From: a virus
Lineage: Duplodnaviria; Caudoviricetes
DNA length: 53,965 nucleotides
Virus record (IMG/VR): IMGVR_UViG_3300025669_001165
Location: 1-53,965 of that record
Reading direction: 5' to 3' (one strand)
The position numbers and the translations under genes are program-made. The notes beneath the pieces are model-generated. The model was not told the origin of the DNA. It did not search any database and saw only the letters and a program-made list of their open reading frames with translations. Below, piece by piece: positions 221 to 53,965 of this stretch (within the stretch, counting starts at the first letter, position 1; each line of letters opens with the position of its first letter).

Positions 221-236
221 GGCCTAACACCTCCCT

Positions 237-729: not shown

Positions 730-2277
730 TTAGTCCTCATCGGAAAGTCCCTGCTCCTTGTCCTCTTCTTTGAACGCGGCGCTAACATGTACCAATGCAT
801 CTGTATAAGATACATCCTCATGCTCTTTCATATATTTCTGAACTTCCACTTCTAACTCACCATCAGTAAGTTTGTAAGTGTCGTCCCCTACCTTAACCTC
901 ATCTTTCAATTCACCCTCTCCCTCTTTACCATTAGGAGAAGCTTCCTTAAAGTCAACGAGTTTAGGAAGTTTACTGAGTAGATTCTGGAACGCTTCAAAC
1001 TGAGATAACTCAGTCTCAATACTCTTCCCATCATCGCCTTTCTTCGTAAACGTGCCCAACTTATCCTCTTCATTTAGCTGCAAGAGAATAGCTTTTGCCT
1101 CTGCTTCGAACGCTGGTAGAACTTTACCAGATGTCTTCAGGTCTTTGAGAAAACTCTCAACCTTACTTTCTTTAGCCTGAGCGTGAAGTTTTACGTTCTC
1201 TTTCTCGGCTTCATCAAGTGAAGTTTTCATCTTCTCATAGTCTGTCTTCATCGTCTTAAGACCATCCAACTCTTTCTTGTAAGTATCCAGGTCTCCCTGA
1301 ATCTTAGCCTTAGTTGTCTCGTCCTGTTCCTTAGCGAACTTCGCTTCTGCATCAGACTGCTTCTGCGCTATACCTTCTATAGCACTTGACAGAGTAGCCA
1401 GTTTTTCAACTATGTCTTTGATTTCCATACTTTCACCTCCTTCTTTGGATTTGTCTTTTCCAACCATCTTTGTCCCGCATTTAGGGCAACTCACTTCAGA
1501 ACAAGGAGTTCCTTTATCATGTTCCTTTTGAAAACTACAACTAGGACAAACACAAACGCTAGAACCCCCATCACCTTGAGAAGGTCCCCCTTGTCCTTTA
1601 CCATCCCCTCTTGCGAAAGAATTTTCAAACTTCATATCCTCTTCACCCTCTAGCGCATAAGTTATTCCTACTAATTCCTTGGTATCCAACAAGTTATCTT
1701 CCTTTGATAACTTAATGGGTTCCATACCTGCAACAGCGGGAATTTCATGCCCTAAGAGAGACACCGCAATGATTACGTCTTTGTATACCGTATCATCTAC
1801 CTTGAAGCCGAGACGCAGTTCAATACTTCTTTCAGCAAATCTCTTATCTCGTATCCACTCTGCTACCTTACTAGGAACGAAATCGACATCTGCAAAGAGT
1901 CTTAAACTACCTCTCGTCTCTCTTGCTTCTATATTAACGATATCACCAAAGGATGCTAATCCTGCTAAAGACTCTTGGTCAGTTCTATGAGTTATCTTTA
2001 GCTTCGGAACAACTTGTTCCTTTAGTGCTTTGAAGTTACTCGCCATTCTCTTTATATCTTCTTCCGTGAACTTACGACCATTCCAGGTACCCACTCGAAA
2101 GATTTCCATTCCCCGAATGTTTACTAATGGCCCATCAAGGAAAGACGCGAGATTGAAATCCTTAACTGCTTTCGTAGCAGCTTCCGGAGATTCGCTATTA
2201 GCTACCTCTACCCAACGTTTCTTTTCTACTGGTGATAGTTTCTTAACGAACTTCTCTACATCGGCAATCTTCCACAT
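730..2277 (-). CDS. Prohead protease/scaffold protein (Mu gpI-like) with a Cys-rich insert
   Basis: EIFRVGTW, KITH, ERSIE and VSLLGHEIPAV protease motifs, then a coiled-coil scaffold C-terminus ending VSYTDALVHV. Lies upstream of the decoration and MCP genes. Confidence 0.8.
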   Translation of the reverse strand: MWKIADVEKFVKKLSPVEKKRWVEVANSESPEAATKAVKDFNLASFLDGPLVNIRGMEIFRVGTWNGRKFTEEDIKRMASNFKALKEQVVPKLKITHRTDQESLAGLASFGDIVNIEARETRGSLRLFADVDFVPSKVAEWIRDKRFAERSIELRLGFKVDDTVYKDVIIAVSLLGHEIPAVAGMEPIKLSKEDNLLDTKELVGITYALEGEEDMKFENSFARGDGKGQGGPSQGDGGSSVCVCPSCSFQKEHDKGTPCSEVSCPKCGTKMVGKDKSKEGGESMEIKDIVEKLATLSSAIEGIAQKQSDAEAKFAKEQDETTKAKIQGDLDTYKKELDGLKTMKTDYEKMKTSLDEAEKENVKLHAQAKESKVESFLKDLKTSGKVLPAFEAEAKAILLQLNEEDKLGTFTKKGDDGKSIETELSQFEAFQNLLSKLPKLVDFKEASPNGKEGEGELKDEVKVGDDTYKLTDGELEVEVQKYMKEHEDVSYTDALVHVSAAFKEEDKEQGLSDED

Positions 2278-2286
2278 GTGTACCTC

Positions 2287-15200: not shown

Positions 15201-16328
15201 TTATCCTCCTACTCTTTGTAATACCTCATGAAGTTTCTTTGCTGCATTATCCCAAGTAAACTCTGATATTGATTCTGTACACTTCTTCTCCATCCAGAGA
15301 TACTTCTCATGGTCATCTCTTATTGCTTCTAACATACTTGTTGCTTTATCTGTATCTGGTATCTTCCAACTACCTCTATCCCCCCTGAACCAGAAGTTAT
15401 CATTTGCTATCTCTTCTCTGCAACTAGGTACTTTTAACTCTTCAGGATAGTCTTGTAAGTATTCTGACATCCCTGTCCAGTCTGTTGTGATTGCAGGAGT
15501 TCCACAAGCAATGCATTCCATCAAAGGTAAGTTCCATCCTTCTGCTTTTGATAACCAAATACCAAAGTCTGCTTCTCTATACATATGTGCCATCTCTCTA
15601 AATGATAGATGCTTTGGAAAATGAGGTATTACTATTCTTGCGCTACCTCTCTCGTATACTAACTCCCCTCTGTTGTTTGCTTCTACGTGTGGTTCAAGGA
15701 ATTGTCTTGCTTCTTTATTCCAGTTTGGGTTGAAGTTGTTACCTATCCAAGCATACAATGTAGCTTTCTTTCTTGCCCCTTCGAATGCTTTAATGAATGC
15801 TGTAAGAACATCTACAGTTCCTTTTCTCTTCTCCCACTTACCTACATGTATGAATGTTAATCCTCTTTCCTCTATCCTTTGCATCTTGAAGTCTTGAGAG
15901 TAGTCTGGATAGAATAGTTCTGGGTCGTAACCTTCTGGAACTACATCTATGTTACTTTGACCTAGTTCACTTTCCAATACTCCCTTCCCCCATTTACTTG
16001 GGGTTAACAAATGGTCACAAGTTCTCATCATTGACTTGGATATCTCATCAAACCTCTCCATTTCAAATACAGGAAACCCTATTCTCTTCCTTCCAGAGAA
16101 CTGACTTAAGAAAGGTTCATTGAATATCATTACTCCCAAGTCACTACTCTGTATGTTCTTCCTATTGTCTAACCATTTCTCTACATCTGTATCTTTCCAT
16201 TGTACGTTACCAAATGGAGGTAGTATACTAACAGGCTCGTCTACGAACTGCTTGCTATACGCCTTTATAAGGTTGTAAGAATGGATGCCATATCCTAAAT
16301 AATTGATTGGAGCATAAAAGTTTATCAT
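15201..16328 (-). CDS. Glycosyltransferase, GT4/GT-B family
   Basis: FIHVGKWEKRKG and SKAEGWNLPLMECIACGTPAI (EX7E motif). Confidence 0.9.
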   Translation of the reverse strand: MINFYAPINYLGYGIHSYNLIKAYSKQFVDEPVSILPPFGNVQWKDTDVEKWLDNRKNIQSSDLGVMIFNEPFLSQFSGRKRIGFPVFEMERFDEISKSMMRTCDHLLTPSKWGKGVLESELGQSNIDVVPEGYDPELFYPDYSQDFKMQRIEERGLTFIHVGKWEKRKGTVDVLTAFIKAFEGARKKATLYAWIGNNFNPNWNKEARQFLEPHVEANNRGELVYERGSARIVIPHFPKHLSFREMAHMYREADFGIWLSKAEGWNLPLMECIACGTPAITTDWTGMSEYLQDYPEELKVPSCREEIANDNFWFRGDRGSWKIPDTDKATSMLEAIRDDHEKYLWMEKKCTESISEFTWDNAAKKLHEVLQRVGG

Positions 16329-16972
16329 TCGTCCCTCCCTGTAGGTACTACTATCCATCTATCTGTTTCGTACTGCATTCCTTTATCATCTGCAGGACGT
16401 TCCTTTATATCGTTGTTGATATTGTAGTACAACGCATTGTTGTACAACTGTCTCTTCATAGTATGTTCATGAAACATAGCATACTGCTCGGGTACTTTCA
16501 ATCCCCTCTTACCTCTATCAAAAGTAAAACCCTCATGTACCTTACCTTCCCAATGACCTCCTGTTCTGTGAAGAACTCTCCATTGAAAATCCTTTCCTAC
16601 TACTTGTCCATCGAACTTTGATATACGATGAATATGATAACCAAAACAATCTTTTGCATCAGCAATCAAAGTAGGTAACAAACCAAAGAACTCTTCTGAG
16701 AACCATTCATCAGCATCACAAAAGAGTATCCAAGGAGTCTTACATAACGTCATTGCATAGTTCCTTTGATGAGCGAAGTCATAAGCGAATGGATGAATGT
16801 CTACTCTACACCCTAACTCTTTACATATCTCTACAGTCTTATCTGTACTCCCTCCATCAACTACAATAACTTCTGCAACGTTAGGCATAAGATTCTCTAC
16901 TGCTTTCGATATGTACTTCTCTTCATTCTGTGCCATAATGATAGCACTAATTGGTATGTCTTTCTTATCCAT
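16325..16972 (-). CDS. Glycosyltransferase, GT2/GT-A family
   Basis: ISAIIMAQNEE, VVDGGSTDKT, FAHQRN and the CDADE DxD motif. Confidence 0.9.
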   Translation of the reverse strand: MDKKDIPISAIIMAQNEEKYISKAVENLMPNVAEVIVVDGGSTDKTVEICKELGCRVDIHPFAYDFAHQRNYAMTLCKTPWILFCDADEWFSEEFFGLLPTLIADAKDCFGYHIHRISKFDGQVVGKDFQWRVLHRTGGHWEGKVHEGFTFDRGKRGLKVPEQYAMFHEHTMKRQLYNNALYYNINNDIKERPADDKGMQYETDRWIVVPTGRDE

Positions 16973-17672
16973 TCCAACCTCCATATCCTAATATCTTTCC
17001 GTCACTGGAAAGTTTCATCTCGTGGTGTTCGAATAACTCTCTCATTACATTACCTAATGACTCCTCTGTGAAAGTATAGATATGTTCTGCGTTTTCACTT
17101 ATCTCCCTATGAGGAACAAACCCACAAACTACCTTCCCTACTCTACTTTGTTCTTTCAATGCTTCGTAGACTGAAGGGAGATGTTCTAAGACATGTTGAC
17201 AATACACAGTATCGAATTCCTTATCGGCATATGTCATATGCAAGGCGTCACCATGGTCGAACCTTACTCCAGTAATATCAAACTTACAAGTTAACATTCT
17301 AGCATACCCTACTAGCATCATTGAAGCATCCATTCCTACTACCATATCAAAAGCTTTTCTCTTAGCCATTGAGATATCCATATACCCTACATTACTACCT
17401 ACGTTAAGGAACTTCTGTCTTCCTTTCTTATACCAAAACGTTTCTTCTATCCATTTATAGATTTCTCCATCATGGTCTGTGTTACTACTGGGTTCTGTAA
17501 AGACATTCTCTCCCATCTTTGTCCAATCATCTCCGTACAATCCTTTATTGTAAGTCATTACTGATTCTAAGTAACCATACCCATTCAGTTCCAACCAGTT
17601 AAGATATTCTTTTTCTGATTTGATACCATTAGGTAAGTGGTAACTCGTTTTTGATATTCCCCGTAACGTCAT
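16965..17672 (-). CDS. Class I SAM-dependent methyltransferase
   Basis: FLNVGSNVG motif I, GMDAS, GDALHM and FDTVYCQHVLEH. Confidence 0.85.
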   Translation of the reverse strand: MTLRGISKTSYHLPNGIKSEKEYLNWLELNGYGYLESVMTYNKGLYGDDWTKMGENVFTEPSSNTDHDGEIYKWIEETFWYKKGRQKFLNVGSNVGYMDISMAKRKAFDMVVGMDASMMLVGYARMLTCKFDITGVRFDHGDALHMTYADKEFDTVYCQHVLEHLPSVYEALKEQSRVGKVVCGFVPHREISENAEHIYTFTEESLGNVMRELFEHHEMKLSSDGKILGYGGWNG

Positions 17673-18342
17673 CTAATTCCTCCCATATCTTTACTGTCTC
17701 TTTCAAATGTTCTACACTCTTAGTACCAAAGACGATTACATCTGGATTGAGAACTCTTAATGCTTCTAAGCATCCTGTTACTGTATACTTAGGGAAACAT
17801 AACCCATCATTGAAAGGCTTGATTGCAAATACAGTACCTCTCTCTTTTAACTTTGCTACATCCTCTACTGTAAACCTACCTTCAATGTGTAGTGGAACCA
17901 TAAACAAGTTACAATCGGGAAACTCTTCTGCAAAGCGATGTGCTAACCTAGGCTCTTCAGTTGTGATACCTAAGTGTAATGAAGGAAAAACTTGCTTAAT
18001 AGCTTGATACATTGCCTTTCCTTTTGAGTACAACTCTTCATTATCCAAGTCTGATACCCATAGTATGTGAACTGTACCTAACAGTCTTACGCTTTTCTCA
18101 AACAATGGTTGCCATTCTGTAAACTGATAAGCAGATACTTTAGTCATCTTTATACAACCATTGAACTTACCTACTATCTCTTCTGCATTACCATATCTGT
18201 GGTGACAGTCAAAGATATTTATACCTTCTCTGATGGCGGCATCTACTAAAAGCATACCATCATCAATAGACATATCTACCATCTTTCCACCACCTAAACA
18301 TAGTTCAGATACTTCCCAACCATCAATCTTTATCTTCTTCAT
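17629..18342 (-). CDS. Aldo/keto reductase-family protein
   Basis: VSELCLG, GINIFDCHHRYGNAEEIVG, TKV and VFGTKSVEHLKE. Confidence 0.8.
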   Translation of the reverse strand: MKKIKIDGWEVSELCLGGGKMVDMSIDDGMLLVDAAIREGINIFDCHHRYGNAEEIVGKFNGCIKMTKVSAYQFTEWQPLFEKSVRLLGTVHILWVSDLDNEELYSKGKAMYQAIKQVFPSLHLGITTEEPRLAHRFAEEFPDCNLFMVPLHIEGRFTVEDVAKLKERGTVFAIKPFNDGLCFPKYTVTGCLEALRVLNPDVIVFGTKSVEHLKETVKIWEELDDVTGNIKNELPLT

Positions 18343-19558
18343 CTCTACTCCTTATCTGTGGGGCTACTGATATCCTTCCAGCCCATTCTGTTAACTGTTC
18401 TACGCTTCCTGAAGATGTTAATACAAAATCATTGCAACCTTCTAACCAATAGTCATCAGCTATAATACCTTCCTTCTTGCAAATCTCATACAAAACAGTT
18501 CCGGGATACAAGTAGGTTAACCCTACAGCGGGGAGTTCTGCCATAGTAAGCGTTTCCATAAACTCAACTGTCTCTTGTATAGTCTCTTCTGTCTCTCCTG
18601 GAAGACCTACCATCATGAATGCAAAGGTATCAATACCTACCTCATAGCATAATTCAAAACACTTCTGAATCTGTTCTTTGGTTATCCTCTTACCTAGAGT
18701 TTGCATAATAGAATCTGAACCAGTCTCTACTCCAAACCTCATTTCAGTACACCCTGCTTGCTTCATAAGTAGTAACATATCCTTTGATACTGGATGTACT
18801 CTAGCATTGCATTGCCAGGTGATATTCAAATTCCTATCTAATATCTCTTGACTTAGACTTGTTGCTCTTCCTATCGTAAAATTGAAAGTATCATCATGGA
18901 ATAGAAAATCTGATATACCGAACTCTTCCATCAAGTACTCTATCTCATCAACTACTAACTTAGCGCTTCTGAACCTTACCCTACCTCCCCAGAAAGCTCT
19001 TGAAGAACAAAAGATACAGTTACCTGGGCATCCTCTTGATGTAATCAAATGTGCTGTACCATTTTCTTCTATCCATTCCCTAGCATATGAATGGTCTGCA
19101 ATAGGTAATGAATCCATATCTACTAACCTTGAACCTACTCTTATCTTCTCTTTATTATCTAACGTTTCAAGTAGTTCTACAATTGCTATCTCTCCTTCAC
19201 CCCTGATGATGTAATCTATAGGAAAGTTATCCAGCAGTTGGTCGCACATTATAGTAGCGTGTACTCCTCCCAATACTACTACTGTGTCCTTGTTGTAATT
19301 CTTTACCATCTCTATTCCTTTATATGTACCGCATCTGTTTTGTGTAATGCAATTAAAACCTACTACGTCAGGGTTAAATCTTTCCAACACTTCTACTAAT
19401 GACTTCTCTGCTTCATCTGCTTTCATATTGAAGAAGCTAAGCATCTCTACTTCATGCCCTTCTTCCTCTATCACCGTACCCAAGAAACCTAAACTCAGCG
19501 GGTAACAGTGATGAGGGTTAGGTACCTGAGCATTCATACTACTCAGAAGTACTTTCAT
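18323..19558 (-). CDS. Cobalamin-binding radical SAM enzyme
   Basis: PLSLGFL, PDVVGF, GGVHAT and RGEGE B12-domain motifs, then SRGCPGNCIFC and GVETGS. Confidence 0.9.
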   Translation of the reverse strand: MKVLLSSMNAQVPNPHHCYPLSLGFLGTVIEEEGHEVEMLSFFNMKADEAEKSLVEVLERFNPDVVGFNCITQNRCGTYKGIEMVKNYNKDTVVVLGGVHATIMCDQLLDNFPIDYIIRGEGEIAIVELLETLDNKEKIRVGSRLVDMDSLPIADHSYAREWIEENGTAHLITSRGCPGNCIFCSSRAFWGGRVRFRSAKLVVDEIEYLMEEFGISDFLFHDDTFNFTIGRATSLSQEILDRNLNITWQCNARVHPVSKDMLLLMKQAGCTEMRFGVETGSDSIMQTLGKRITKEQIQKCFELCYEVGIDTFAFMMVGLPGETEETIQETVEFMETLTMAELPAVGLTYLYPGTVLYEICKKEGIIADDYWLEGCNDFVLTSSGSVEQLTEWAGRISVAPQIRSRDEEDKD

Positions 19559-20486
19559 ACTTGGGCCACCAGTCGGGTGCAATGAAGCTTTCCATGTAGT
19601 CACAATCTTTACAAAAGGGCAAGTTCTCTTGCTTCATAGCAAGATGCAATTGTCTAACAGTTTCGAACTTCTTACCTTGCCATATCTCTTTGACGCTTTC
19701 TGTATTGGAATCTCCTACAACTAACTTCGCTAGAACATCCTGACAACATACTACGGCTTGACCGTCCGAACAGATGCTCAAGTCTAAAAAAACTCTCCAG
19801 CAAGGGTTCTTCATATGCCCTCCTATGTACTGTCCTCCGAGTCTCATCTTCTTTGAATCTATCAATCCACCTATGTTGTTGACTCCACTTCCTCCTACAT
19901 CATCTATCCCCAATCCTTGAAACAGTTTATAGTATTCTGGAAGCGAGCGTTCATTTGTCTTACAAGGAATGAATGCAGTCTGTGTAGGAATGTTACTACC
20001 TAGTTCCTTTCTTATCTCCATAAAGGCAGCTATGTTACCTACTACTGTCTCCCACTTCAATCCCTTTCTCATAGCTTCAAACGCTTCCTTGTTGCCTCCA
20101 TCTACACTAAAGACTATCTTATCTATCTTTGATTCCAACAACTTCCGAGATACATCTCTGTTCATAAGGGAAGCATTCGTAAAGAAACATATGATAGGTG
20201 TACCAGGTAGGTTCTCTTTTGCATAATTGATTCTATATACAAATTCTCCTATTGGTAGATGTAAGGGCTCACCATTGAGATGCAGATGAAAATAATCCAA
20301 TCTCCATCCAGCTTCCTTAATCTCATCTACTATCTTGATGTATAAACTTTCCTTCATGTCTCCGTTTCTCTCCATTCCTTCTCTGGGACAAGTAATACAT
20401 CCTCCATTGCACCAAGAACTACTCTCTACATGTATTTCCTTAGGTGCCGTAAAACTACTAGCTACAAAGTCTTTCAAGTTCTCCAT
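19539..20486 (-). CDS. Radical SAM protein with a SPASM/twitch domain
   Basis: CNGGCITC, NGEP and TNA, with C-terminal PCWR...VCCQD...CKDC. Confidence 0.9.
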   Translation of the reverse strand: MENLKDFVASSFTAPKEIHVESSSWCNGGCITCPREGMERNGDMKESLYIKIVDEIKEAGWRLDYFHLHLNGEPLHLPIGEFVYRINYAKENLPGTPIICFFTNASLMNRDVSRKLLESKIDKIVFSVDGGNKEAFEAMRKGLKWETVVGNIAAFMEIRKELGSNIPTQTAFIPCKTNERSLPEYYKLFQGLGIDDVGGSGVNNIGGLIDSKKMRLGGQYIGGHMKNPCWRVFLDLSICSDGQAVVCCQDVLAKLVVGDSNTESVKEIWQGKKFETVRQLHLAMKQENLPFCKDCDYMESFIAPDWWPKYESTSE

Positions 20487-28420: not shown

Positions 28421-28421
28421 A

Positions 28422-35818: not shown

Positions 35819-35825
35819 AGCCTCC

Positions 35826-36907: not shown

Positions 36908-36909
36908 TG

Positions 36910-37743: not shown

Positions 37744-37759
37744 GTATCCCCTCCTTGTT

Positions 37760-44856: not shown

Positions 44857-45351
44857 TTATAACATATGGTGGTAGCCCCCAGCAGGGGCCCCCCAAGCTT
44901 GCATTTCATAAATATAAGCGTACCCCTGAGAAGTGCTATAGGGAATTTGCAAATCCCTACCCAGACCCACTACAATCGCTTTCATTCCTGTAACTCCTGA
45001 CCATCCAGTATCATCTGATATCCACGTTGCTGTAGTTGTCCCCTGAGTTGTTTCAACATATATTATGTCTTGCCAATCACCATTAAAGTATAATTGTATG
45101 CCCCATTGTCGATACCCCCCACTTCTTCCTCCTCCAACTGAAGTAAACTTTAGTTTCACCTCTTGTATCTTACTACGGGGAAACCAACATATTGAGGATA
45201 TAGACCCTCCAGCAGTCACCCCAAGAGCGTCCCACTTGCCCCGATAAGACGCATCGTTAGCATCATTCATATCAGCGATTGCCCCTATAGTAAAAGAACC
45301 TCCTTCTACTACTACTAGGTCTTGATTATAAACAAGGTCTTTTGAAGGCAT
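44857..45351 (-). CDS. Tail tip-associated beta-sandwich protein
   Basis: Coupled to the J-like gene; discoidin-like YIYEMQAWG C-terminus. Confidence 0.5.
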   Translation of the reverse strand: MPSKDLVYNQDLVVVEGGSFTIGAIADMNDANDASYRGKWDALGVTAGGSISSICWFPRSKIQEVKLKFTSVGGGRSGGYRQWGIQLYFNGDWQDIIYVETTQGTTTATWISDDTGWSGVTGMKAIVVGLGRDLQIPYSTSQGYAYIYEMQAWGAPAGGYHHML

Positions 45352-48300
45352 TATGCTATCTCCACGTCGAGTTGAATTGAAATATCTTCACCCTCATAGA
45401 GCGAACCTATCTGGTCTACTCCTATAGTCACTTCATCCCCGGATGCGATAGTCGTTGTATCAAATACTTCTCTGATAACCGTTTCGGGGGTTTCATCTCC
45501 TGATGGAAGTATTATTCTGTTCCACTGACTGGACGCCCAGATAGATGAACCATTAACGTCTACGTCTACTATGACTGAGTCTCCTGAAGAAGGTTTCTCT
45601 ATATAACCTCTTGCACTCTTTATAGTAGCGTCGAAAGGCATTATGAAAGTTCCACTGGCGTTGTCCCCAGACTCGGGAGACCCTGGAAGATACCAAAATA
45701 GTGACCTTCCTACTACGTCTGAAACTCCTGCTCCGTATATCGTTCCCGAGTTAATCTCTAACCCGTCTGTACCGTCTAATTTGAATCCAGTAACTCCCTC
45801 CACATAATTGTCACTTCTTATGTCTCCCGATTCGTTTATGACTATCGAGCCTGCAGCTAAGGTACCTGCTATTAGTTTCGTAACTGAAAGGTTAATGATA
45901 TGAGCGTTGTTTATGATAGCATCTCTGATTTGAGCAGACAGTGTTAGTATCTCCCCGGCATAGAGATTTCTGGCTTTTATGACTTCATCGCCAAACATGT
46001 CTGCTGTTAGCGTCTTATATTCGACGGATACAACGTTTGAAGCATCTCCGCTACCATAAGTATCCACCCCGTAAACTCTGTACCATCTCTTATCGGTCAG
46101 CAACCATTCTGAGGTAGCATCTGGATTAGTATCCCAAACAGTGTCTCCTGTTATTGTTCCTGCGACTGCATCGTATCCTATAACCTGTCTAGTTTGTCCT
46201 CTTCCAGTACCTCTTGTTATAGCTAACTGGTCTCCCTCAAACCTCCTATCTCCAGAACCTACTAACTCTGTTGCAGTTAGAGTGTCATTTGTTCCACTAT
46301 CCCCACTACCAGCAACTGGAGGGTCTCCTAGGATTGTTGCTCTGGTTCCTACTACCTTTGACTCTAACCAGTCATCCCCACTCCCCCATGTGTTATTTCT
46401 CGATACGTAGATGTCGTAACTTACAAGGTCAGGGTCTGTAACGTCTACCCAGTTTAGTTCTGCAAACCCAAACCACACTAGTGGTTCTATAACGGGCGCA
46501 GCAGGAGCAGCATTGGTAGGTGTAGTACTGGCCGAAGAGACCGAGTAGTTACCACTCCTGTCTATCGCCCTACAATAATAAGTACCAGGAGCGCGAGAAC
46601 CTGGACTTATTATTGTGTACGTATCCGCCTGACCCCTAAATACGAGATTAGAAACATCACCAGAGGCCCAAGTCACATCAGTAGTACGTATTTCATATCC
46701 CCACAGGTCTACATCTGTATTGGGAGTCCAAGCCAGTGTTATCTCGTTCGTAAATGTATTCGTAAGTCCCTGAACAACTGCTGGGGCACCTTGTTTACCT
46801 AAAGTGATGATGTTAGCAGAATACGCACCATCGGAAATATAGTCTCTCGTGGAGACTGTCTTAACTCTGATTATATAGGTTGCCTGACTTTCCACATCTG
46901 GAATAGTCATATACTCATCTTTCGTATACCCTACCACTGTATATCCATCATCTCCTGATGTCCATACATTGATGAATAAACCTAGGTTGAGGATTGGGTC
47001 ATCTTTGTAATCCTCTAACCTTGCTAATTCACTATCTCCTACCTTCCTTAACTCCACTTGGTAGTAATCGAAGTATTCAAATCCTTGCTTTATCCCATCC
47101 CAAGTAACTTCCAAATCTGAAATAGCTGCACCATCGTGATTGAAATAAACAGTCTCTTTAGCATCCACGTCTGTTGGATTTGGAAGAGGTTGCGTTTCAT
47201 AATCTGTTAATGGTAGAACTGGACGGGTGTAGTTGGATAAGTCCCCTCCATAACTGTCAGTATAGAGAGTACCATAGTGCTCCCTACATTCTATCAACCT
47301 ATTGTCATCATCCATTTCGGCTATAGACAGTATTCTGAATTGCTTCTTATCCCAATTGTAATCGGGTAAAGTTACAGATATGACATCTCCGGGTTCACAA
47401 TGTACAGCTAGGATAGACGTTTTGAATGTTAGGTTAACCCCAACGACCCGGGACATTCGCAGAAAGAAGTTTGCTACTCTGAGTGCTTGACTCTGTCTGG
47501 TGATTCCCATAAGTTGGACTTCTGTACCTACTACTCCTCGTCCTCCCTCTAAGTCGTTTCTCAAGACCTGGTCATTCAAGTCTTCTGCAATGGCGTAAAC
47601 TTTCGTATATTCATTCTCGGGGTCTAAGAAGAGAACCTTTATCCTATTGTAGAACTCATCCTTACCCGTCATTGAGAACTTCGCACTATCCTGTATGATA
47701 GTATCTTCATCAAAGTCCTGAGTTGATACTTCTTCCTTCTCTACGTTAAGAAACAGTTTACCTTGGGCCCACACTAGGAACCCTCCAAAGGTAGCAAGTA
47801 TCTCACCTAGGATATCTAACTGAGACCTCTGAGAGTCAATTACCATATCCAGTTCGAATCTATTCTCTAACCCTCCATCCCCATCTTCTACTTGACCATC
47901 ACAGTAAAGGTATGAATTGTAGAAACTGGTGAAGTCGATTACATCGTCACCCAATCCACATCCATATCTTTGATTAGTCAGAAAATCCAATACGCAAGCG
48001 GATGGATTATTGGAGTACTTTGTATTGGTCCAATTGAGTGCTGCATAAGGAGTTCGTACTTTCGTTCCCGCTACAGTTGAGGATACAACGGGGTTACCAC
48101 CTTTTAGTTTGCTCCCAGCAGTAAGAGTAACCGCTAGATAAGCGAACCTTCTCATACCGTATAACTTACCCGCGAACCTCTCATCTTGGTCTTGGGTTTC
48201 AGTTCCTAGGTACGCAGTATAGGAACAACTTCCAATATCCTCTATTGGAGTGTCGTTTACTTTAACATCTGTTATACTTGTAACTTCTCCCATACAGATA

Positions 48301-48584
48301 CAAATCGCTCTCTTTACTGAAGCACCAGGTTCACTTTGGTAAACATTGTTACCATACATCTTCAGTGTGCCGTATAGAATCGGAAGAGGTAACTCTGAAG
48401 TAGTTGTATTCTGAAGAGCACCAAATCCATATCGTGGAGAAGAACCACCCGCACCAATAAGGTTACCGCCACCAACTGCTCCAGACTTCGGAGCAGTCAT
48501 CATACCGTAAACTACAGCGGCTCCGGCAGCGACAATTACCCAACCTATAATGGCATATGTTACAGCGGTGGCTGTTACAGGCAT
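45351..48584 (-). CDS. Central tail fibre / host-specificity protein (lambda J-like, FN3 domains)
   Basis: LPILYG, NNPSACVLDFL, YNRIKV and EPGDVI, FN3-like repeats, and 11 SGD motifs in the C-terminal half. Confidence 0.85.
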   Translation of the reverse strand: MPVTATAVTYAIIGWVIVAAGAAVVYGMMTAPKSGAVGGGNLIGAGGSSPRYGFGALQNTTTSELPLPILYGTLKMYGNNVYQSEPGASVKRAICICMGEVTSITDVKVNDTPIEDIGSCSYTAYLGTETQDQDERFAGKLYGMRRFAYLAVTLTAGSKLKGGNPVVSSTVAGTKVRTPYAALNWTNTKYSNNPSACVLDFLTNQRYGCGLGDDVIDFTSFYNSYLYCDGQVEDGDGGLENRFELDMVIDSQRSQLDILGEILATFGGFLVWAQGKLFLNVEKEEVSTQDFDEDTIIQDSAKFSMTGKDEFYNRIKVLFLDPENEYTKVYAIAEDLNDQVLRNDLEGGRGVVGTEVQLMGITRQSQALRVANFFLRMSRVVGVNLTFKTSILAVHCEPGDVISVTLPDYNWDKKQFRILSIAEMDDDNRLIECREHYGTLYTDSYGGDLSNYTRPVLPLTDYETQPLPNPTDVDAKETVYFNHDGAAISDLEVTWDGIKQGFEYFDYYQVELRKVGDSELARLEDYKDDPILNLGLFINVWTSGDDGYTVVGYTKDEYMTIPDVESQATYIIRVKTVSTRDYISDGAYSANIITLGKQGAPAVVQGLTNTFTNEITLAWTPNTDVDLWGYEIRTTDVTWASGDVSNLVFRGQADTYTIISPGSRAPGTYYCRAIDRSGNYSVSSASTTPTNAAPAAPVIEPLVWFGFAELNWVDVTDPDLVSYDIYVSRNNTWGSGDDWLESKVVGTRATILGDPPVAGSGDSGTNDTLTATELVGSGDRRFEGDQLAITRGTGRGQTRQVIGYDAVAGTITGDTVWDTNPDATSEWLLTDKRWYRVYGVDTYGSGDASNVVSVEYKTLTADMFGDEVIKARNLYAGEILTLSAQIRDAIINNAHIINLSVTKLIAGTLAAGSIVINESGDIRSDNYVEGVTGFKLDGTDGLEINSGTIYGAGVSDVVGRSLFWYLPGSPESGDNASGTFIMPFDATIKSARGYIEKPSSGDSVIVDVDVNGSSIWASSQWNRIILPSGDETPETVIREVFDTTTIASGDEVTIGVDQIGSLYEGEDISIQLDVEIA

Positions 48585-49006
48585 CCTACCACCTCCAGGC
48601 CGTATCTAAACTTCCCCGTCCAATAGTCACTGAGGGAAGATATACAACTCTTTCCTACGTGAGGCATATACAAGAACTTATTATCCCCCAGATAGGCAGC
48701 GGCCAACTCTATTCTATCCTTCCCACTTATGGAGAAGAATATTAAGTCGTTTTCCTTTAGGTCTTCTATCCTATCTCTCCTATGTCCTCCGGCGGTAAGT
48801 TTTGCAATCTCATCATTGAATTTTCTTGCTGTGGTAAGTATAAAATGTCCGTCAAACTCATAATCGGGAAACTGCTCTTGTGCCTGGGTTCCCAATTCTC
48901 TATAATAGGCTATCAATAGAGTTACGCAATCCATGCCCTCCTCTAGTGTTTCCCCTTTGAGTTTATACTTAACTCCTACATACTTCTGCACTCTGTCATT
49001 TATCAT
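48575..49006 (-). CDS. NlpC/P60-like tail tip protein (His sites appear degenerate)
   Basis: YVGVKY..GMDC and DLIFF..YLGDNKFL. Confidence 0.75.
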   Translation of the reverse strand: MINDRVQKYVGVKYKLKGETLEEGMDCVTLLIAYYRELGTQAQEQFPDYEFDGHFILTTARKFNDEIAKLTAGGHRRDRIEDLKENDLIFFSISGKDRIELAAAYLGDNKFLYMPHVGKSCISSLSDYWTGKFRYGLEVVGCL

Positions 49007-49854
49007 TTTATCACCATATTCTCAGGGATGGTATGAAAGCCCCCGAAGTTTGCTTCGTTGCCATAATCGCCACTGCACATGAATAACGTCTTATCGCAAC
49101 CAGTCCGCACCGTGTATGTATCTCCCACTGCTGGTGCATAAGGCATAGGGTTGTCTAAAGTAATCTGTCCTACTATACTTGTATCTACTGTTTGTCTGTA
49201 CCCGTCATTCTGACCCGATGTGAATCTTACGTAACCTCTTCTCCAATACCTATCTGCCTCCGTTACATCAACTCCTTTAAGTTCAGTTGTAGTACAATCA
49301 GCGTCACATGTCTTACTTTTGCTGTACGCAGCATCTGCTACATTTACTCCACACTCCTCTCCCCCGAACCTCCAATTGCAAGGTAACTGATACCATATGT
49401 GAGGGGCTTTCTTCTTCAACGAACTTATCCTTGGAACTACATTTATGGATAACCATTTATCGTCTACCGCTGGAGAATCCATTAGACCATCGAATATAGT
49501 AACAGCATCTCCTGAGGACCCCAATACGTTAGTGAATACCTGTCGGATAACTATTCGTCTACCTCTGAACTCATTAGCCTGTAAGTATCCTACCAAACTC
49601 TTATCTACATTGGATATTCCTACTCTCACTCTGTCTATGTCTAATCCCAAAGAAGACTTCGCAGAACTTCTCGAACCTGGTACTGGTTGATAAACTGCAG
49701 CATCTCCCGAAGCAGCATTGAAGAAGCTAATACTCTCCGTGTTGTTAGCCACGAAGTAATATGTAGTTGTGTCCAGATAGAGGTCAATCAATTCGACTGG
49801 TCTATTGTGGTCACCTGATGCAGTTGTCTTAAAATCTTGAGTTAAGTTTCTCAT
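49003..49854 (-). CDS. Baseplate hub-like protein (DUF2163/BR0599 family)
   Basis: CNWRFGGEECGV, FTSGQNDG and GCDKTLFMC..NFGGF. Confidence 0.85.
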   Translation of the reverse strand: MRNLTQDFKTTASGDHNRPVELIDLYLDTTTYYFVANNTESISFFNAASGDAAVYQPVPGSRSSAKSSLGLDIDRVRVGISNVDKSLVGYLQANEFRGRRIVIRQVFTNVLGSSGDAVTIFDGLMDSPAVDDKWLSINVVPRISSLKKKAPHIWYQLPCNWRFGGEECGVNVADAAYSKSKTCDADCTTTELKGVDVTEADRYWRRGYVRFTSGQNDGYRQTVDTSIVGQITLDNPMPYAPAVGDTYTVRTGCDKTLFMCSGDYGNEANFGGFHTIPENMVIK

Positions 49855-50417
49855 AACACCTCTACCAAGTCAATGTCAAAATTCCAAAGTTTGTAGGCGA
49901 ATTGTTCTCGCGACAACTCATCCCCACCAAACCTAACTTGATAGTAGAATCTATAATCTGTTGCCATTACAAGTTCAGCACTTCCTGGAGCTACAGAGAA
50001 CTCTATTGCGCCCGTAGTATAGTTCACCGTATAATCAGAAGCCTCTGTTACTGGAGTACCATCTACGGTTAAATCACAATCACCACTCTTAACTGGATAC
50101 CTATCGAACTGAAAGGATTTCTCCGAACCTGTTCCAGTTCCTACATGTTCATCTCCACTTTGGGAGATAGGACTTTCATCTGTAGCCTCCCAATAGAAGC
50201 TTTCTCCCTTTCCTGACTTTCCATTGAAGAAGTTGTATAGGTAATCAGACTGCTCTGTGTTCCTTCCAGTTGCTCCCCATTTGAATCTATGTTTCGGACG
50301 AGTCCACTTAGAACGTCTTTGCTCCTTACCACTCATAAATGGAGAGACTAACGTTCGATATATCTTTGTTTTCTCATACGATAATACAATATCTCCTGTA
50401 AAGATTTCTGCACTCAT
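49851..50417 (-). CDS. Distal tail protein (DUF2460)
   Basis: SGKEQRRSKW, FF...GKGESF and GTGTGSEKSFQ. Confidence 0.8.
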   Translation of the reverse strand: MSAEIFTGDIVLSYEKTKIYRTLVSPFMSGKEQRRSKWTRPKHRFKWGATGRNTEQSDYLYNFFNGKSGKGESFYWEATDESPISQSGDEHVGTGTGSEKSFQFDRYPVKSGDCDLTVDGTPVTEASDYTVNYTTGAIEFSVAPGSAELVMATDYRFYYQVRFGGDELSREQFAYKLWNFDIDLVEVL

Positions 50418-52618
50418 TATATTAAGTTCTCCCTCATTGCACCTCTAAGCGGTGTATTGTTCATAACTGCCCTTCCAACGACTATTTCTATAGCTTCTGG
50501 ATTCGATTGAACCAGATTAGCAAAACTAGGCGCGTCTACCGCTTGGATGTAATAGTTGTGGTTCACAACATTTCCTGAACCTGCTCCTGTTGACTCCCCT
50601 CCACCTGAGGGTCCTCCTAGAGTTAAGTTTCCCGCTCTTATCGCAGATGCGAAACTCTTAGGAACTACCATCTCTCCTGGGGTTAGACTTGCAGGGACAC
50701 TATCTGTACCTGCTGCAAATCCTTGTGACATAATAGTTGCTACCTGTACTGCTCCAGCAGCTCCTGCAGATATTACGCCCATCATATTGAGAGGCCATCC
50801 AGGTGGTGCTGCTAATGCAGCAGTAACTGCAACCGCTGTATTTATTATAGCCTCTCCTACCCTGAGAGCTTTTATGACCATTGCATACTTCTTACTCTCT
50901 CCCTGGGCTATTTCAAATAGAGACGCTACTGAACCCATTGTTTGAGCAGTGGAGCTCATAATTGCTTGAGCATTCGCTAAAGCTACCTTCTTTACCATTT
51001 CCTGTTGTGCTGCTAGCAACTCCATATATCTATCACCTGCGGCCTCTCGAATTTCTTGAATCTGTGTCTCCGCCAACCAAATAGCTGCGACCTTATCCAT
51101 CTCTCCTTGAAGTATTGCTATTTTTTCTTGTTCTTTCATATACGCAGTCTTCTCATGAGCCTCTTCCATTATAGCAGCAATTGCTGTGGTTCCTTCTAAG
51201 ACTAACTCAGCTTCTTTTGTGTTCGAAACTCTTAGTATCTCAAGTTTCTTATTAGCTGCAAACTCCTCTTGACTTTGGCCCTCCCAAGGGTCCCCTCCTG
51301 AAACAATTGGAGTTGTTGGTGTTGGAGCTCCTCCAGTATCTTTTTTTACTCCACTTACTTTATCTATAGCGTTATTGACGAAAGCAACCGCTCTGCTTCC
51401 TACTTCTGCGCCTCCTGGAAAGATTGCATCTAGGATACCATCCTTAACTGATGTAAATAGTCCCCCCCTTATCATATCTGGTAACTTCCTCATAGCCAAT
51501 GCTATATTTTGCATAGCGCTAATTAAGGGAGTTTCCTTTGCGATGAACCCTCCTACTTCTATATTCATCATATGCCAAGAAGCAGCTACTTTATCCAATT
51601 TCTTCTTAGTCGTCTCCATCTGAACCTTTAACGCCTCTTCCGTGATACCCTGCCTATTCGCAAACTCTATAGCAAACTTTCTCGTCTCATTCATCTCTTT
51701 AGTTGCTGCTATCAATCCCTTCAAGGCTCTAACCCTAGGTAACATACGTCCTAATTCTTCTTTCCGTACCTTGCCCATCTCTTCTAAGATGTCTAAAAAC
51801 TTACCTTGTTTTAAGGCCTCTTGAGTAGTCATATCGAACCAATCTTGAGACTTCGCTTGTAACTCTTCGGTAGGTTTCAACAGACCCTGCATAATACCTG
51901 TCATCGCTGTAGCGGCTTCATTATAGTTACCCATCGAGACAGTCATCTTAGCATACGCGGCCATTGTATCTTCAGCAGAAATCTCTAAGTCACTTGCCAT
52001 TGGTAAAAACCTACCAGCAGCAGATGATAACTCACCTATAGTCGCTCTGGCTCTAACCTGTGCTTTAAATAACAAGTCTGCAGCGTCAGCAGCACCGTTA
52101 AGAGAACTCCCGTACGCCTCCATTAGAGTTACCAACCCCTGAGTCGTTGCTTCCATATCCGAACCACCAGCGACAGCTAGTTTAGAAGCAGCAGCTAAGA
52201 TGTTCAAAGACTCTGCAGTATTTCCTACAGCAGAATGTATGTCAAAACTAGACTTAAGGAGCGATTTAGTAGTCAGTCCATAGGTTACCGATAATTCCTT
52301 AATAGCCTTCTCAAACTGTTTCACATCTCCAGTATTACTACCCATTAGAATAGCTATGTTGGCCAATCCCTTTTCGAAGTCTGCAAAAGCATTCAATGAT
52401 TTCATAGCCGCCATAGCCACACCAGTAATAACTGCGGCTACCGCCATCCAATGAGTCTTTAGGAACTTTGCTGCTTTACCTCCGGCTCGTCCTGCTCCCC
52501 TCATAGCATTTCCTGCCCTCGTGGAGAAGTTTCGGATTGACCTCTGAGCGGAAGCTAATCCTGCTGCAGTAGCATTCCTGGCTTTGACAACTAATTCTAA
52601 CGCTCTTTGATTCAACAT
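50417..52618 (-). CDS. Tail tape measure protein (TP901-like)
   Basis: 733 aa, Ala-rich and helical, with C-terminal FAAGTDSVPASLTPGEMVVP. Follows the chaperone genes. Confidence 0.9.
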   Translation of the reverse strand: MLNQRALELVVKARNATAAGLASAQRSIRNFSTRAGNAMRGAGRAGGKAAKFLKTHWMAVAAVITGVAMAAMKSLNAFADFEKGLANIAILMGSNTGDVKQFEKAIKELSVTYGLTTKSLLKSSFDIHSAVGNTAESLNILAAASKLAVAGGSDMEATTQGLVTLMEAYGSSLNGAADAADLLFKAQVRARATIGELSSAAGRFLPMASDLEISAEDTMAAYAKMTVSMGNYNEAATAMTGIMQGLLKPTEELQAKSQDWFDMTTQEALKQGKFLDILEEMGKVRKEELGRMLPRVRALKGLIAATKEMNETRKFAIEFANRQGITEEALKVQMETTKKKLDKVAASWHMMNIEVGGFIAKETPLISAMQNIALAMRKLPDMIRGGLFTSVKDGILDAIFPGGAEVGSRAVAFVNNAIDKVSGVKKDTGGAPTPTTPIVSGGDPWEGQSQEEFAANKKLEILRVSNTKEAELVLEGTTAIAAIMEEAHEKTAYMKEQEKIAILQGEMDKVAAIWLAETQIQEIREAAGDRYMELLAAQQEMVKKVALANAQAIMSSTAQTMGSVASLFEIAQGESKKYAMVIKALRVGEAIINTAVAVTAALAAPPGWPLNMMGVISAGAAGAVQVATIMSQGFAAGTDSVPASLTPGEMVVPKSFASAIRAGNLTLGGPSGGGESTGAGSGNVVNHNYYIQAVDAPSFANLVQSNPEAIEIVVGRAVMNNTPLRGAMRENLI

Positions 52619-52620
52619 AT

Positions 52621-52911
52621 TTACAAGTCCTTCTCAGCTACAGTTACTGTCTTTATTGGTCCTTGACCACTAGGTCCTTTGTGCTTCATCGCCATCCTTT
52701 GCTTTTCGAACTCTCTACTCATGTGGTCAAATACTCTACTCTCAATTATTCGAAAGTCTACCATATCTTTTTGGTCTTGGTCATAATACCCACCCGACCT
52801 AGGTAAACATCTTAACTCTCCATCAAGTGTAGGGCTACAAAACAAGTAAGTCACTAGAGCCTGGGGAAGCTTCTTCAATTGCAACTGTTCACAAACAGCT
52901 TGAGAAGACAT
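52621..52911 (-). CDS. Tail assembly chaperone T segment (expressed by -1 frameshift)
   Basis: LPRSGGYYDQD motif. The frame is open from the slippery site to this ORF. Confidence 0.75.
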   Translation of the reverse strand: MSSQAVCEQLQLKKLPQALVTYLFCSPTLDGELRCLPRSGGYYDQDQKDMVDFRIIESRVFDHMSREFEKQRMAMKHKGPSGQGPIKTVTVAEKDL

Positions 52912-52937
52912 CCCCGACAGCAGTAACTCAGTAGCCC

Positions 52938-53312
52938 TTACGAGTTTTTTTCTTCCTCGCTCCTCTTAGATGTCTTCCGGAGACCGTTATCTTCATCAAT
53001 CCTCTTCGCGAGGAACTGTTGAACAATAGAAGGAAGAAGTTCCTTGTTAGCTGAATTACAAGTAGCATCCTTTCCTTCTACCAACTCCACGTTTCTCCAA
53101 CTTACAATGGCCAAGTCAATCTTCAACCTAGTTGCTGTTCCACCAAGATAAGCAAAAGTTTCATCTCCCCTACTGACAGTTATCTCATCATCAATAGAGT
53201 TAACTTCTCCTGCACTTAGTTTCCTCAGCATAAACACTGGTTGCTTATCCTTAGCTACATCTTTCTCCTGATACACTACCTCATATGACTCTTTTACATT
53301 TACTAACTTCAT
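52938..53312 (-). CDS. Tail assembly chaperone G
   Basis: Between the tail tube and tape measure genes; ends EEEKNS. Confidence 0.8.
   Translation of the reverse strand: MKLVNVKESYEVVYQEKDVAKDKQPVFMLRKLSAGEVNSIDDEITVSRGDETFAYLGGTATRLKIDLAIVSWRNVELVEGKDATCNSANKELLPSIVQQFLAKRIDEDNGLRKTSKRSEEEKNS
52944..52950 (-). other. Programmed -1 frameshift slippery heptamer A AAA AAC
   Basis: The -1 frame reads KLVRATELLLSG and continues into MSSQAV of 52621..52911. Confidence 0.8.
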
Positions 53313-53349
53313 ATCTCTCCTCCTGTGCGCCCTTTTAGGTTTGCGCCCG

Positions 53350-53965
53350 TTATACTACTGTCAAAGTTAACACATCGTTATCTGTGTCATCGATGTAAGC
53401 AGTAAAGTTAAATGTTTCTGCAACGTAATCTGTCTGACTAGACAACGGTGACGATGAATTGTCAAACAATACCTTGTTCATTTGGAGCTTGAATGAGCTC
53501 GAATCTCTGGAGTATGTTGCTTCCAGTTTCGTGGGAAGTTCACTTAAGAACTTATCCAACTCATCAGTATCCTGAAACAGCTTCGTAAAGCTTCCTGTTA
53601 TTACAACTTTAGTTGCTGGTATGCTTACTCTCTCTTTACCTGTGGTATAGAGGTCCGTAACGAGATTGTTGTTTATCGAAAGCGAGAACGAAGTTATATC
53701 TGTGTTCGCTACGTCATCGAATTCGAAAACAGCATCGTTATGTAGATACGGGTCATCCCCAGAAGTAAATGATGCTGAACTACCCTGAGTAAGCTTCTGA
53801 TAACCTTTACCTTCTAGTGTGGCTACACACTGGAGAGGATTAGATTGCGAAGAAGTAAACTCAAGAGAACTCACCATGTCTCCTGAAGTATAGATATCTG
53901 CTGTCTCTCTATCAACGTGTAAGACCAAAGAACTTAAAGGTCTATCCGGTGCGTAAGGAGATGCT
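53350..53965 (-). CDS. Major tail tube protein, C-terminal part (runs off the window end)
   Basis: ITSFSLSINNNL and ITGSFT motifs; upstream of the chaperone genes. Confidence 0.8.
   Translation of the reverse strand, partial: ASPYAPDRPLSSLVLHVDRETADIYTSGDMVSSLEFTSSQSNPLQCVATLEGKGYQKLTQGSSASFTSGDDPYLHNDAVFEFDDVANTDITSFSLSINNNLVTDLYTTGKERVSIPATKVVITGSFTKLFQDTDELDKFLSELPTKLEATYSRDSSSFKLQMNKVLFDNSSSPLSSQTDYVAETFNFTAYIDDTDNDVLTLTVV

Follow-up and report, generated by a model that had tools for sequence, protein, structure and literature searches.

A strict Ser-Gly-Asp motif on the outer virion proteins of an uncultured siphophage lineage, inherited together with a phage-borne enzyme kit: a candidate sequon for virion modification

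The DNA analysed here, called the window throughout, is a 53,965-bp virus record from IMG/VR (IMGVR_UViG_3300025669_001165) in which every gene lies on the minus strand and which covers most of a siphophage genome. Its outer virion proteins are crowded with the tripeptide Ser-Gly-Asp (SGD), and the phages that share this trait also share a set of seven genes, called the kit below: two glycosyltransferases of family GT4 (GT4a and GT4b), a glycosyltransferase of family GT9, a B12-binding radical S-adenosylmethionine (radical-SAM) enzyme, a SPASM radical-SAM enzyme, an aldo-keto reductase (AKR) and a methyltransferase (MT). It is proposed, with a probability of about one in two, that SGD is a sequon that directs a modification to its serine, most likely O-glycosylation. 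The proteins that carry the motif, together with two neighbours that do not, are as follows.

45351..48584, minus strand: J-like central tail fibre/host-specificity protein, 1077 amino acids (aa); Pfam Phage-tail_3 at 67 bits and a weak fn3 match; 11 SGD
49003..49854, minus strand: baseplate hub protein, 283 aa; Pfam Phage_BR0599 and Phage_phiJL001_Gp84_N; 4 SGD
49851..50417, minus strand: DUF2460 distal tail protein, 188 aa; Pfam PF09343 at 90 bits; 2 SGD
53350..53964, minus strand: tail tube protein, its gene truncated at the window end so that the C-terminal 204 aa remain; Pfam Phage_tube_2 at 74 bits; 2 SGD
237..644, minus strand: putative capsid cement/decoration-type protein, 135 aa; linked to PF09956 by a family profile; 4 SGD
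3083..5266, minus strand: 727-aa fibre-like protein that ends in a ConA-like lectin domain; Pfam Laminin_G_3 at 58 bits; 1 SGD
48575..49006, minus strand: NlpC/P60 tail peptidase of the tail-tip module, 143 aa; Pfam NLPC_P60; no SGD
50417..52618, minus strand: tape measure protein, 733 aa, used as internal control; Pfam PhageMin_Tail; no SGD

The hand counts of the first-pass annotation (11, 4, 2, 2 and 4 in the J-like, hub, DUF2460, tube and 135-aa proteins, 1 in the fibre and about 5 elsewhere) were all reproduced, giving 23 SGD in the 1,887 aa of the five virion proteins. Its estimate that about one would be expected was equally borne out: the composition expectation is 1.23 and 5,000 within-protein shuffles gave a mean of 1.13 (standard deviation 1.05) and a maximum of 7. 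When all tripeptides of the minus-strand proteome were ranked, SGD came first (28 against 4.57 expected, Poisson 1.2e-13), ahead of VVG (Poisson 2.6e-7). Shuffles and ranking together rule out composition or chance and confirm that the enrichment is real and more striking than first noted. It is also confined to virion proteins, as had been claimed. The remaining 63 open reading frames (ORFs) hold 5 SGD against 3.55 expected, a count of at least 5 being reached by 29% of shuffles, and are thus neutral for the motif, compared with 23 against about 1.2 in the virion proteins. SGD was absent from the tape measure, the portal, the 515-aa protease/scaffold and the chaperones, for which the same had been stated earlier, and from the major capsid protein. 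Over-representation of a short motif on a target class of proteins, with neutrality elsewhere, is a feature of sequon-directed modification and is what is seen here.

The 23 sites are written with 6 Ser, 4 Gly and 2 Asp codons in proportions that roughly match overall usage. This rules out a DNA-level repeat, and because all six Ser codons are used, selection must act at the protein level, in agreement with the earlier view. All 11 sites of the J-like protein lie between residues 543 and 1048. Repetition of FN3 domains fits only three of them (543, 641 and 735, each W-x-SGD and about 96 aa apart) and therefore cannot account for the remaining sites. The full-length homologue of the truncated tube protein, in locus L005, has 291 aa and likewise 2 SGD.

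The strictness of the motif was determined in a pool of 20 proteins from five genomes that contain 86 SGD. As these proteins had been selected for at least two SGD each, the 18.9-fold enrichment in the pool is circular and was not used; only the comparison with neighbouring tripeptides is informative. Among the one-step neighbours TGD occurs 8 times against 4.3 expected, AGD 0 against 3.8, SGE 0 against 2.8, SAD once against 3.7, SSD once against 4.4 and GSD 0 against 4.6. The motif is strict: one-step neighbours are unenriched and several of them are depleted. Its flanks are loose, with small or aliphatic residues at -1, aromatic residues at -2 (Trp 7.4 times background), V/I at 3.2 and 2.3 times background at downstream position +2 and enrichment of V/F at +3, so that in sequence terms they look like a turn running into a beta-strand.

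Comparison with homologues, in which the motif sites are taken by x-G-D, x-G-x or unrelated residues, indicated that the trait is specific, as far as the sequences tell, to one uncultured siphophage lineage. Five of 11 J homologues have 7-11 SGD and the other six 0-1. Among 150 representatives of the hub family 104 have none and nine have 3-7. Of 80 viral loci related through J, only L005 is strongly enriched (19 against 1.5 expected), L034 is borderline (5 against 1.6) and 78 have at most 3. Where J sites can be aligned, the SGD-poor proteins read WGVQS, AGEE, KGTN or YGAGV and the SGD-rich ones WASGD, GSGD or YGSGD. In SGD-poor homologues the columns that correspond to SGD are enriched for the middle Gly (22-40%, 2.9-4.1 times background) and the third-position Asp (23-34%, 3.1-5.1 times), and the first position is Ser in 8-9% (1.2 times). 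The three sites of the 135-aa protein that read SGD in the lineage are VGD/IGD, GAG and DGD in its homologues from SGD-poor phages. As Gly and Asp, and not Ser, are enriched in these columns, the serine is, on the alignments, the derived residue, placed before older Gly-Asp turns. This would be expected if serine were the functional atom.

Sites have moved within the lineage. Among SGD-rich hub homologues the motif is spread over 18 alignment columns, of which just 4 are common to at least three sequences, which indicates that sites have been gained and lost. Variable positions with preserved density are another feature of sequon-directed modification and are found in the hub; sites in J and in the 135-aa protein were compared as well. 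In the hub tree the four full-length SGD-rich proteins (P0030-33) form one supported clade (97) with P0050 outside it, a placement still compatible with a single origin, and in the J tree the five SGD-rich proteins fall on one side of a supported branch.

The assignment of the 135-aa protein bears on which surfaces carry the motif. Its gene has the protease/scaffold gene on one side and the major capsid gene on the other, and SGD62 and SGD120 are invariant in all 18 homologues, SGD105 being present in 16 of the 18. The window protein itself matched no Pfam family, PF09956 (Phage_cement_2) included. Sub-threshold matches to Phage_cement_2 were obtained in 8 of the 18 homologues (best E 3.1e-4) and Phage_cement matches in 7 of the 18. 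The family profile finds ORFs in L045, L047, L049, L050 and L058 at E values of 4e-7 to 1e-6 and also reaches a 122-aa protein of record G014 that scores 26.4 bits for PF09956 (cut-off 24). PHROG 673 labels the family as scaffolding, and a search of the PDB with the cement profile yielded a chance match only. With some doubt, the profile links and the position of the gene point to a capsid surface protein of the cement or decoration type.

The kit of the window phage is split in two. The stretch from the head-tail connector genes to the tube gene, immediately beyond the window, holds GT4a, GT4b, GT9 and a B12 radical-SAM enzyme; these four were located in locus L001, which overlaps window positions 1-2685 at 99.8% identity and runs 7.2 kb past the window start. 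MT, AKR and the SPASM enzyme are found at 15.2-20.5 kb, alongside a third GT4 (GT4c), a glycosyltransferase of family GT2 and a second B12 radical-SAM enzyme.

L001 5925-9860, beyond window position 1: GT4 (406 aa), GT4 (372 aa), GT9 of the heptosyltransferase family (313 aa) and a partial B12 radical-SAM enzyme
15201..16358, minus strand: GT4 glycosyltransferase (GT4c), 385 aa; Pfam Glycos_transf_1; orthologues in G005 (48%) and G010 (33%)
16325..16984, minus strand: GT2 glycosyltransferase, 219 aa; Pfam Glycos_transf_2 at 76 bits; orthologue in G005 (54%)
16965..17672, minus strand: SAM-dependent methyltransferase, 235 aa, kit member; Pfam Methyltransf_11; orthologues in G009, G010 and G011 (about 27%)
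17629..18342, minus strand: aldo/keto-reductase-fold protein, 237 aa, kit member; TM 0.82-0.85 to Aldo_ket_red clusters in an Atlas structure search
18323..19603, minus strand: B12-binding radical-SAM enzyme, 426 aa; Pfam B12-binding and Radical_SAM
19539..20486, minus strand: radical-SAM/SPASM enzyme, 315 aa; Pfam Radical_SAM (PF04055, 46 bits) and SPASM (PF13186, 44 bits)

In the records G009, G010 and G011 all seven genes (GT4a, GT4b, MT, SPASM, AKR, GT9 and B12 radical-SAM) form one block within the virion gene module, bounded by the connector genes and the tube gene. Identities of these proteins to those of the window phage are 36-39% for GT4a, 42-43% for GT4b, about 27% for MT, 47-49% for SPASM, 40-44% for AKR (G005 included), about 36% for GT9 and 35-39% for the B12 radical-SAM enzyme. 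Record G005 carries GT4a, GT4b, GT4c, GT2, two methyltransferases, AKR and SPASM. The SPASM enzyme, which has its CxxxCxxC at C26/C30/C33, a motif conserved in 40 homologues, is 45-70% identical in SGD-rich phages. The first-pass annotation had assigned the reading of SGD to the 15.2-20.5 kb cluster; this cluster turned out to be just half of the conserved kit, and what stands of the proposal is that phage-encoded glycosyltransferases travel with SGD across relatives. In G005 (L087, 3522-5495) two proteins with ConA-like lectin domains (326 and 327 aa) adjoin the SPASM gene, and a 139-aa ORF in the same place in the window (20498-20917) matches a third of one of them.

Kit and motif occur together. 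The long SGD-poor records G001-G004 lack the SPASM enzyme, and the SGD-rich G005 has it at 67% identity. When the alignment of 40 SPASM homologues was used for a reverse search, 78 viral loci were recovered. Seven of the eight loci whose SPASM enzyme is 45-49% identical (L102-L109) contain SGD at 4.9 times the expected number or more (L102, 15 against 2.5; L104-107, 12 against about 2; L109, 14 against 2.5; L103, 3 against 0.6). The eighth, L108, has 2 against 2.0 expected. It belongs to G008, a 44-kb fragment with a 45% identical SPASM enzyme in which the other kit genes were not found; holding no structural genes, this fragment is uninformative either way. None of the 69 loci with a SPASM enzyme of at most 31% identity has more than 5 SGD. 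At the level of whole records SGD is the top tripeptide outlier in G009 (43 against 4.35 expected), G011 (26 against 4.14) and G010 (13 against 3.5). Kit orthologues are present on every SGD-rich contig that spans the region concerned, including the fragments L002 and L005, which have the expected genes where the region is covered; in L099 a weak radical-SAM match (E 2.4e-5) lies upstream of the tube gene. Since L104-L107 and L109 hardly differ and count as one phage type, distinct SGD-rich types are few: window/L001, L002, G005 (the same as L097), L005, L099, L103, G009 and G010/G011.

The kit is missing from SGD-poor relatives. With ten kit proteins as queries, tblastn gave no match in 82 loci related through J or hub (1.06 Mb, a set in which SGD-rich L099 and borderline L034 are included), and none in G001/G002. 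Three distant relatives, G013, G014 and G016, share terminase, capsid, cement, distal tail protein, hub and J with the window phage. Their SGD counts are at background (4 against 4.05, 5 against 3.5 and 2 against 2.45), and no kit orthologue was found in them, one unrelated GT4 aside. The mere presence of a glycosyltransferase does not predict SGD. G003 (L189-L194), with five GT2 matches, is unenriched as scored over its 22.6-kb locus L064 only, and so is G014, which has a GT4 in its head module. The expectation that SGD enrichment would follow a glycosyltransferase cluster across relatives is therefore upheld for the kit and fails for glycosyltransferases on their own. That GT4 of G014 is clear (L199, 8277-9476), and no tripeptide stands out in this phage. 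A scan of metagenomes returned one locus, L097, which is the same phage as G005 (99.98% identity). Single-protein scans of viral contigs found no further relative and scans of genome contigs no match. In the phage collection the SPASM and B12 radical-SAM enzymes have weak matches only. That cement and SPASM proteins sit on shared contigs was deduced only from the identical longest contigs of their clusters (62,271, 64,429, 60,260, 60,222 and 27,095). Motif and kit have been retained jointly in phages that share as little as about 31-45% identity in their structural proteins.

The most SGD-rich single protein is a 1180-aa fibre of G009 (L182, 10017-13559), in which 27 SGD occur in a repeat of about 29 residues, the units being 29 or 14 residues apart. 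This repeat inflates the count of G009; without the fibre the record still has 16 SGD against 3.4 expected and SGD remains its top outlier. The fibre gene of G009 is followed by a 108-aa Gp77-like adaptor with 3 SGD, which lies directly upstream of the homologue of the protease/scaffold-type gene at window 730-2277.

The reading that is favoured is the following. The lineage would have installed SGD on turns of its outer virion proteins (cement, tube, distal tail, hub, the distal half of J and the head or side fibres), the residue under selection being the serine, set before an existing Gly-Asp or Gly-containing turn. In the cytoplasm, during late gene expression, the phage-encoded enzymes (two GT4, GT9, B12 radical-SAM, SPASM, AKR and MT, with GT2 and a third GT4 added in some members) would modify this serine. 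The product may be an O-linked sugar that is tailored by the radical-SAM, reductase and methyltransferase enzymes and extended by further glycosyltransferases, and the outcome would be a particle with a glycan coat. What the sequences show is the enrichment, its restriction to one lineage, the turnover of sites, the derived serine and the co-inheritance and genomic place of the kit; action of the kit on virion proteins, serine as the modified atom, a glycan as product and the purpose of a coat are what we infer. The kit has two radical-SAM enzymes at its core, so that the modification may not be purely a glycan. A stronger form, in which the system is self-contained with a sequon of three residues, so that any exposed x-Gly-Asp becomes a site once x is Ser, and in which many virion proteins bear a radical-SAM-tailored glycan or a new radical-SAM modification, is put forward tentatively as a possibility with roughly one chance in three.

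Several observations weigh against this proposal. The major capsid protein lacks SGD in every member (the full 306-aa protein of L001 has none), and sequence variability, taken as a proxy for exposure of the sites, was only weakly positive (p=0.002 for J and p=0.19 for the hub). The three cement sites are kept down to 38% identity and possibly have a structural role. In NCBIfam no kit enzyme reaches the cut-off of a curated functional subfamily. In a phmmer search of the PDB the phage GT9 resembled the lipopolysaccharide (LPS) heptosyltransferase WaaC (E 2.5e-4) more than TibC (E 0.037-0.065), a protein glycosyltransferase that we take to be GT9-related. The cytidylyltransferase-like domain to which one structural neighbour of the SPASM enzyme is fused hints that the enzyme may act on a nucleotide sugar; this fits the tailoring of a glycan and provides no link to SGD. 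Finally, the trees suggest that the SGD enrichment and the kit each probably arose once. Their co-occurrence then amounts to about one evolutionary event followed by long joint retention, and not to many independent events.

A single origin of both traits would also link them by descent if SGD were a structural or ligand motif (a turn, a metal site or an RGD-like adhesion element) and the kit an unrelated passenger that modifies the host envelope or the DNA. The motif does precede hydrophobic, beta-strand-like segments (V/I at +2, V/F at +3), x-G-D is the older state in the families of cement, hub and J, the three cement sites are invariant across the lineage, and in eukaryotic systems SGD has been reported as an integrin-binding variant of the RGD type (PMC10268255). 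However, structural need would not lead to rapid turnover of sites, nor to the same tripeptide on folds as unrelated as cement, tube, hub, J, Gp77-like adaptor and repeat fibre, nor to Ser alone at a first position where homologues elsewhere tolerate A, T, E, V and D. The kit is, moreover, situated inside the virion gene module and DNA modification has its own genes. This explanation is considered unlikely, and the narrower idea of the kit as a DNA-modification system is likewise made less likely by its place in the virion module and by the separate 7-deazaguanine gene set described below. Very improbable is the alternative that SGD is read by a modification system of the host while the phage kit does another job. 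The trait tracks the phage kit across phages with structural proteins that are about 31-45% identical, and the other phage proteins are neutral for SGD. General bacterial O-glycosylation systems, furthermore, work outside the cytoplasm, whereas virions assemble inside it. In favour of a host system it can be said that no cultured relative was found and that a host methyltransferase modifying a phage tail protein has been reported (PMC13445384).

The remaining alternative stays closer to the proposal: SGD would be the target of a mainly non-glycan radical-SAM modification (oxidation, C-methylation, epimerisation or cross-linking at Ser, Gly or Asp), with the glycosyltransferases acting later or elsewhere. 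Both the SPASM and the B12 radical-SAM enzyme belong to the conserved kit, it was the SPASM-seeded reverse search that recovered more SGD-rich phages, and joint strictness for Ser, Gly and Asp would suit a tight active-site template. The best NCBIfam names of the SPASM enzyme are those of protein or metalloenzyme maturases, yet these are sub-threshold (96 bits against a cut-off of 380): the enzyme has the CxxxCxxC core and the SPASM domain and does not match a curated subfamily (anSME, PqqE, sactisynthase). Nothing like a leader peptide or a precursor of a ribosomally synthesized and post-translationally modified peptide was seen. Three to five co-inherited glycosyltransferases would be left without a role, a neighbour of the SPASM enzyme in structure is fused to a nucleotidyltransferase domain, and AKR with a methyltransferase is typical of sugar tailoring. 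This alternative is regarded as quite unlikely, if still a live one. As to the other kit members, the B12 radical-SAM enzyme reaches 205 bits against an NCBIfam cut-off of 360, and the best names for GT2, far below their cut-offs, are an arsenosugar glycosyltransferase and the peptide S-glycosyltransferase SunS. The GT9 of L001 scores 75.1 bits for PF01075 (cut-off 22) and has homologues in L102 and L104. Solved relatives of the two GT4 in the structural module are remote only.

Serine-directed O-glycosylation by a phage kit would have partial precedents. The GT4 enzymes SdgA and SdgB O-glycosylate the Ser-Asp repeats of staphylococcal adhesins in the cytoplasm. The phage kit resembles them in having two or three GT4 and a Ser beside Asp; it differs in that its targets are isolated SGD turns instead of long SD repeats, and the SdgA model of NCBIfam is matched very weakly (15.5 bits at E 0.005, where the cut-off is 800). 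Eukaryotic proteoglycan xylosylation is Ser-specific and uses Ser-Gly flanked by acidic residues. Here the resemblance is one of motif only, the kit proteins scanned being GT4, GT2 and GT9 with no xylosyltransferase-type family among them. In the chloroviruses, which are giant viruses of eukaryotes, the glycans are N-linked on the major capsid protein. Virus-encoded protein glycosylation with atypical sequons is described for them (PMC9614988, PMC5408694). Chloroviruses and the window phage would have in common a virus-borne machinery and a short, non-canonical sequon on capsid proteins; the window phage differs in being a bacterial siphophage, with a Ser motif and with no sites on the major capsid protein.

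Closer in biology are the mycobacteriophages, in which virions are glycosylated by phage-encoded glycosyltransferases at the C-termini of capsid and tail tube subunits, as PMC12619734 reports for the work of Freeman et al. 2023. Both cases concern tailed phages with glycosyltransferases of their own (here GT4 and GT2 in the window and GT4, GT4 and GT9 in L001), which are presumed to act on capsid-associated and tail tube proteins. In contrast to the C-terminal glycans of the mycobacteriophages, the candidate sites considered here, recognized from sequence alone, are internal SGD on at least six protein families and are absent from the major capsid protein, and the kit adds two radical-SAM enzymes, a reductase and a methyltransferase. 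TibC is a cytoplasmic GT-B heptosyltransferase that O-modifies Ser, and not Thr, in NSGG and TSAA of autotransporters of the TibA/AIDA-I type, and its structure has been compared with those of an LPS heptosyltransferase and MurG (PMC4358343). Modification by TibC and AAH is Ser-only, occurs at many sites and at Ser-Gly or Ser-Ala turns and involves a beta-rich surface protein; the phage system would be alike, its kit containing a GT9 and its candidate motif being Ser-only in sequence (TGD 8 against 4.3). The phage GT9 is, however, shorter (290-322 aa against the 406 aa of TibC) and nearer to LPS heptosyltransferases, and the phage motif requires Asp at +2. No description of an SGD motif in phages was found in the literature searched, supplements apart.

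If the self-contained system is real, phage virion modification would have its first defined sequon, and the tagging system would be portable. Decorating a particle through one strict internal sequon shared by cement, tube, tail-tip and fibre proteins, with a conserved kit rich in radical-SAM enzymes, would be new; the modified serines would be exactly predictable, and phage surfaces could be engineered with a small, genetically encodable tag. It would also help to explain why many glycosyltransferase and radical-SAM genes, usually read as serving host metabolism or DNA modification, are present in uncultured aquatic phages. The derived serine at older Gly-Asp turns would show a code spreading over a proteome through single substitutions. 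The approach followed, a genome-wide tripeptide outlier combined with a co-inherited enzyme kit, could reveal other viral modification codes.

The full genome of the window phage is probably about 62 kb, the protein clusters to which its proteins belong listing a longest contig of 62,271 bp. CheckV gives the record a completeness of 32%, and its gene content and that contig suggest that only about 8 kb is missing. In the order of transcription the window opens with the tail tube gene, cut by the window end, followed by chaperones, tape measure, DUF2460 distal tail protein, BR0599-type hub, NlpC/P60 peptidase and the J-like protein. Next come replication and recombination genes with a 7-deazaguanine gene set, then the six genes of the 15.2-20.5 kb cluster tabulated above, from SPASM radical-SAM to GT4c, and finally terminase, a portal/Mu-F-like fusion, the lectin-domain fibre, protease/scaffold, the 135-aa protein and the major capsid gene, of which 73 codons fall inside the window. 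Two genes of this last part have been relabelled on the basis of PHROG matches: the major capsid protein is encoded by the gene cut at 2-220, and the product of the 515-aa ORF (730-2277) is the protease/scaffold and not the capsid protein.

2..220, minus strand: major capsid protein, of which the window start leaves the N-terminal 73 aa; the 306-aa ORF of L001 matches PHROG 1005 'major head protein' at E 6.6e-56; no SGD
730..2277, minus strand: protease/scaffold, 515 aa; PHROGs 976, 3894 and 73; no SGD

Among cultured relatives the best J homologue is at most 27% identical, and none was found for the cement protein or for the 515-aa protein. The portal fusion is a single ORF of 916 aa (5644-8394) in which a Mu-type portal is joined to a Mu-F-like head morphogenesis domain. 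An 851-aa protein (31715-34270) combines a family A DNA polymerase with an N-terminal domain of the uracil-DNA-glycosylase superfamily and a 3'-5' exonuclease domain. The 7-deazaguanine-type set occupies 26933-29419 and 34260-37809 and comprises QueC (27752-28450, 206 bits), a QueE-like radical-SAM enzyme (28422-29084), GTP cyclohydrolase I/FolE (36910-37809), a DUF5591 protein (35021-35818), which we take to be a TGT/DpdA-like domain, a further radical-SAM enzyme (34260-35036) and a phosphoribosyltransferase (26933-27574). The presence of this set suggests that the phage modifies guanine in its own DNA.

Other serine-rich sequences were encountered in phages outside the SGD-rich lineage. No gene of the GT1 or GT2 family was found in the records G001 and G002, which are SGD-poor and share the tail-tip module. 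Long poly-serine tracts are present on putative virion proteins in both G001 (L088-L091; 29699-30640, 36092-36997 and 46145-49066) and G002 (L092-L094; 644-1609, 45584-48232 and 57558-58736), among them a 973-aa protein with 736 overlapping SSS and the DUF2460 homologue, which has a poly-Ser tail. TST-rich repeats occur in the loci L010-L012, L014 and L079. Such poly-Ser and TST tracts may represent a different way of dressing the virion.

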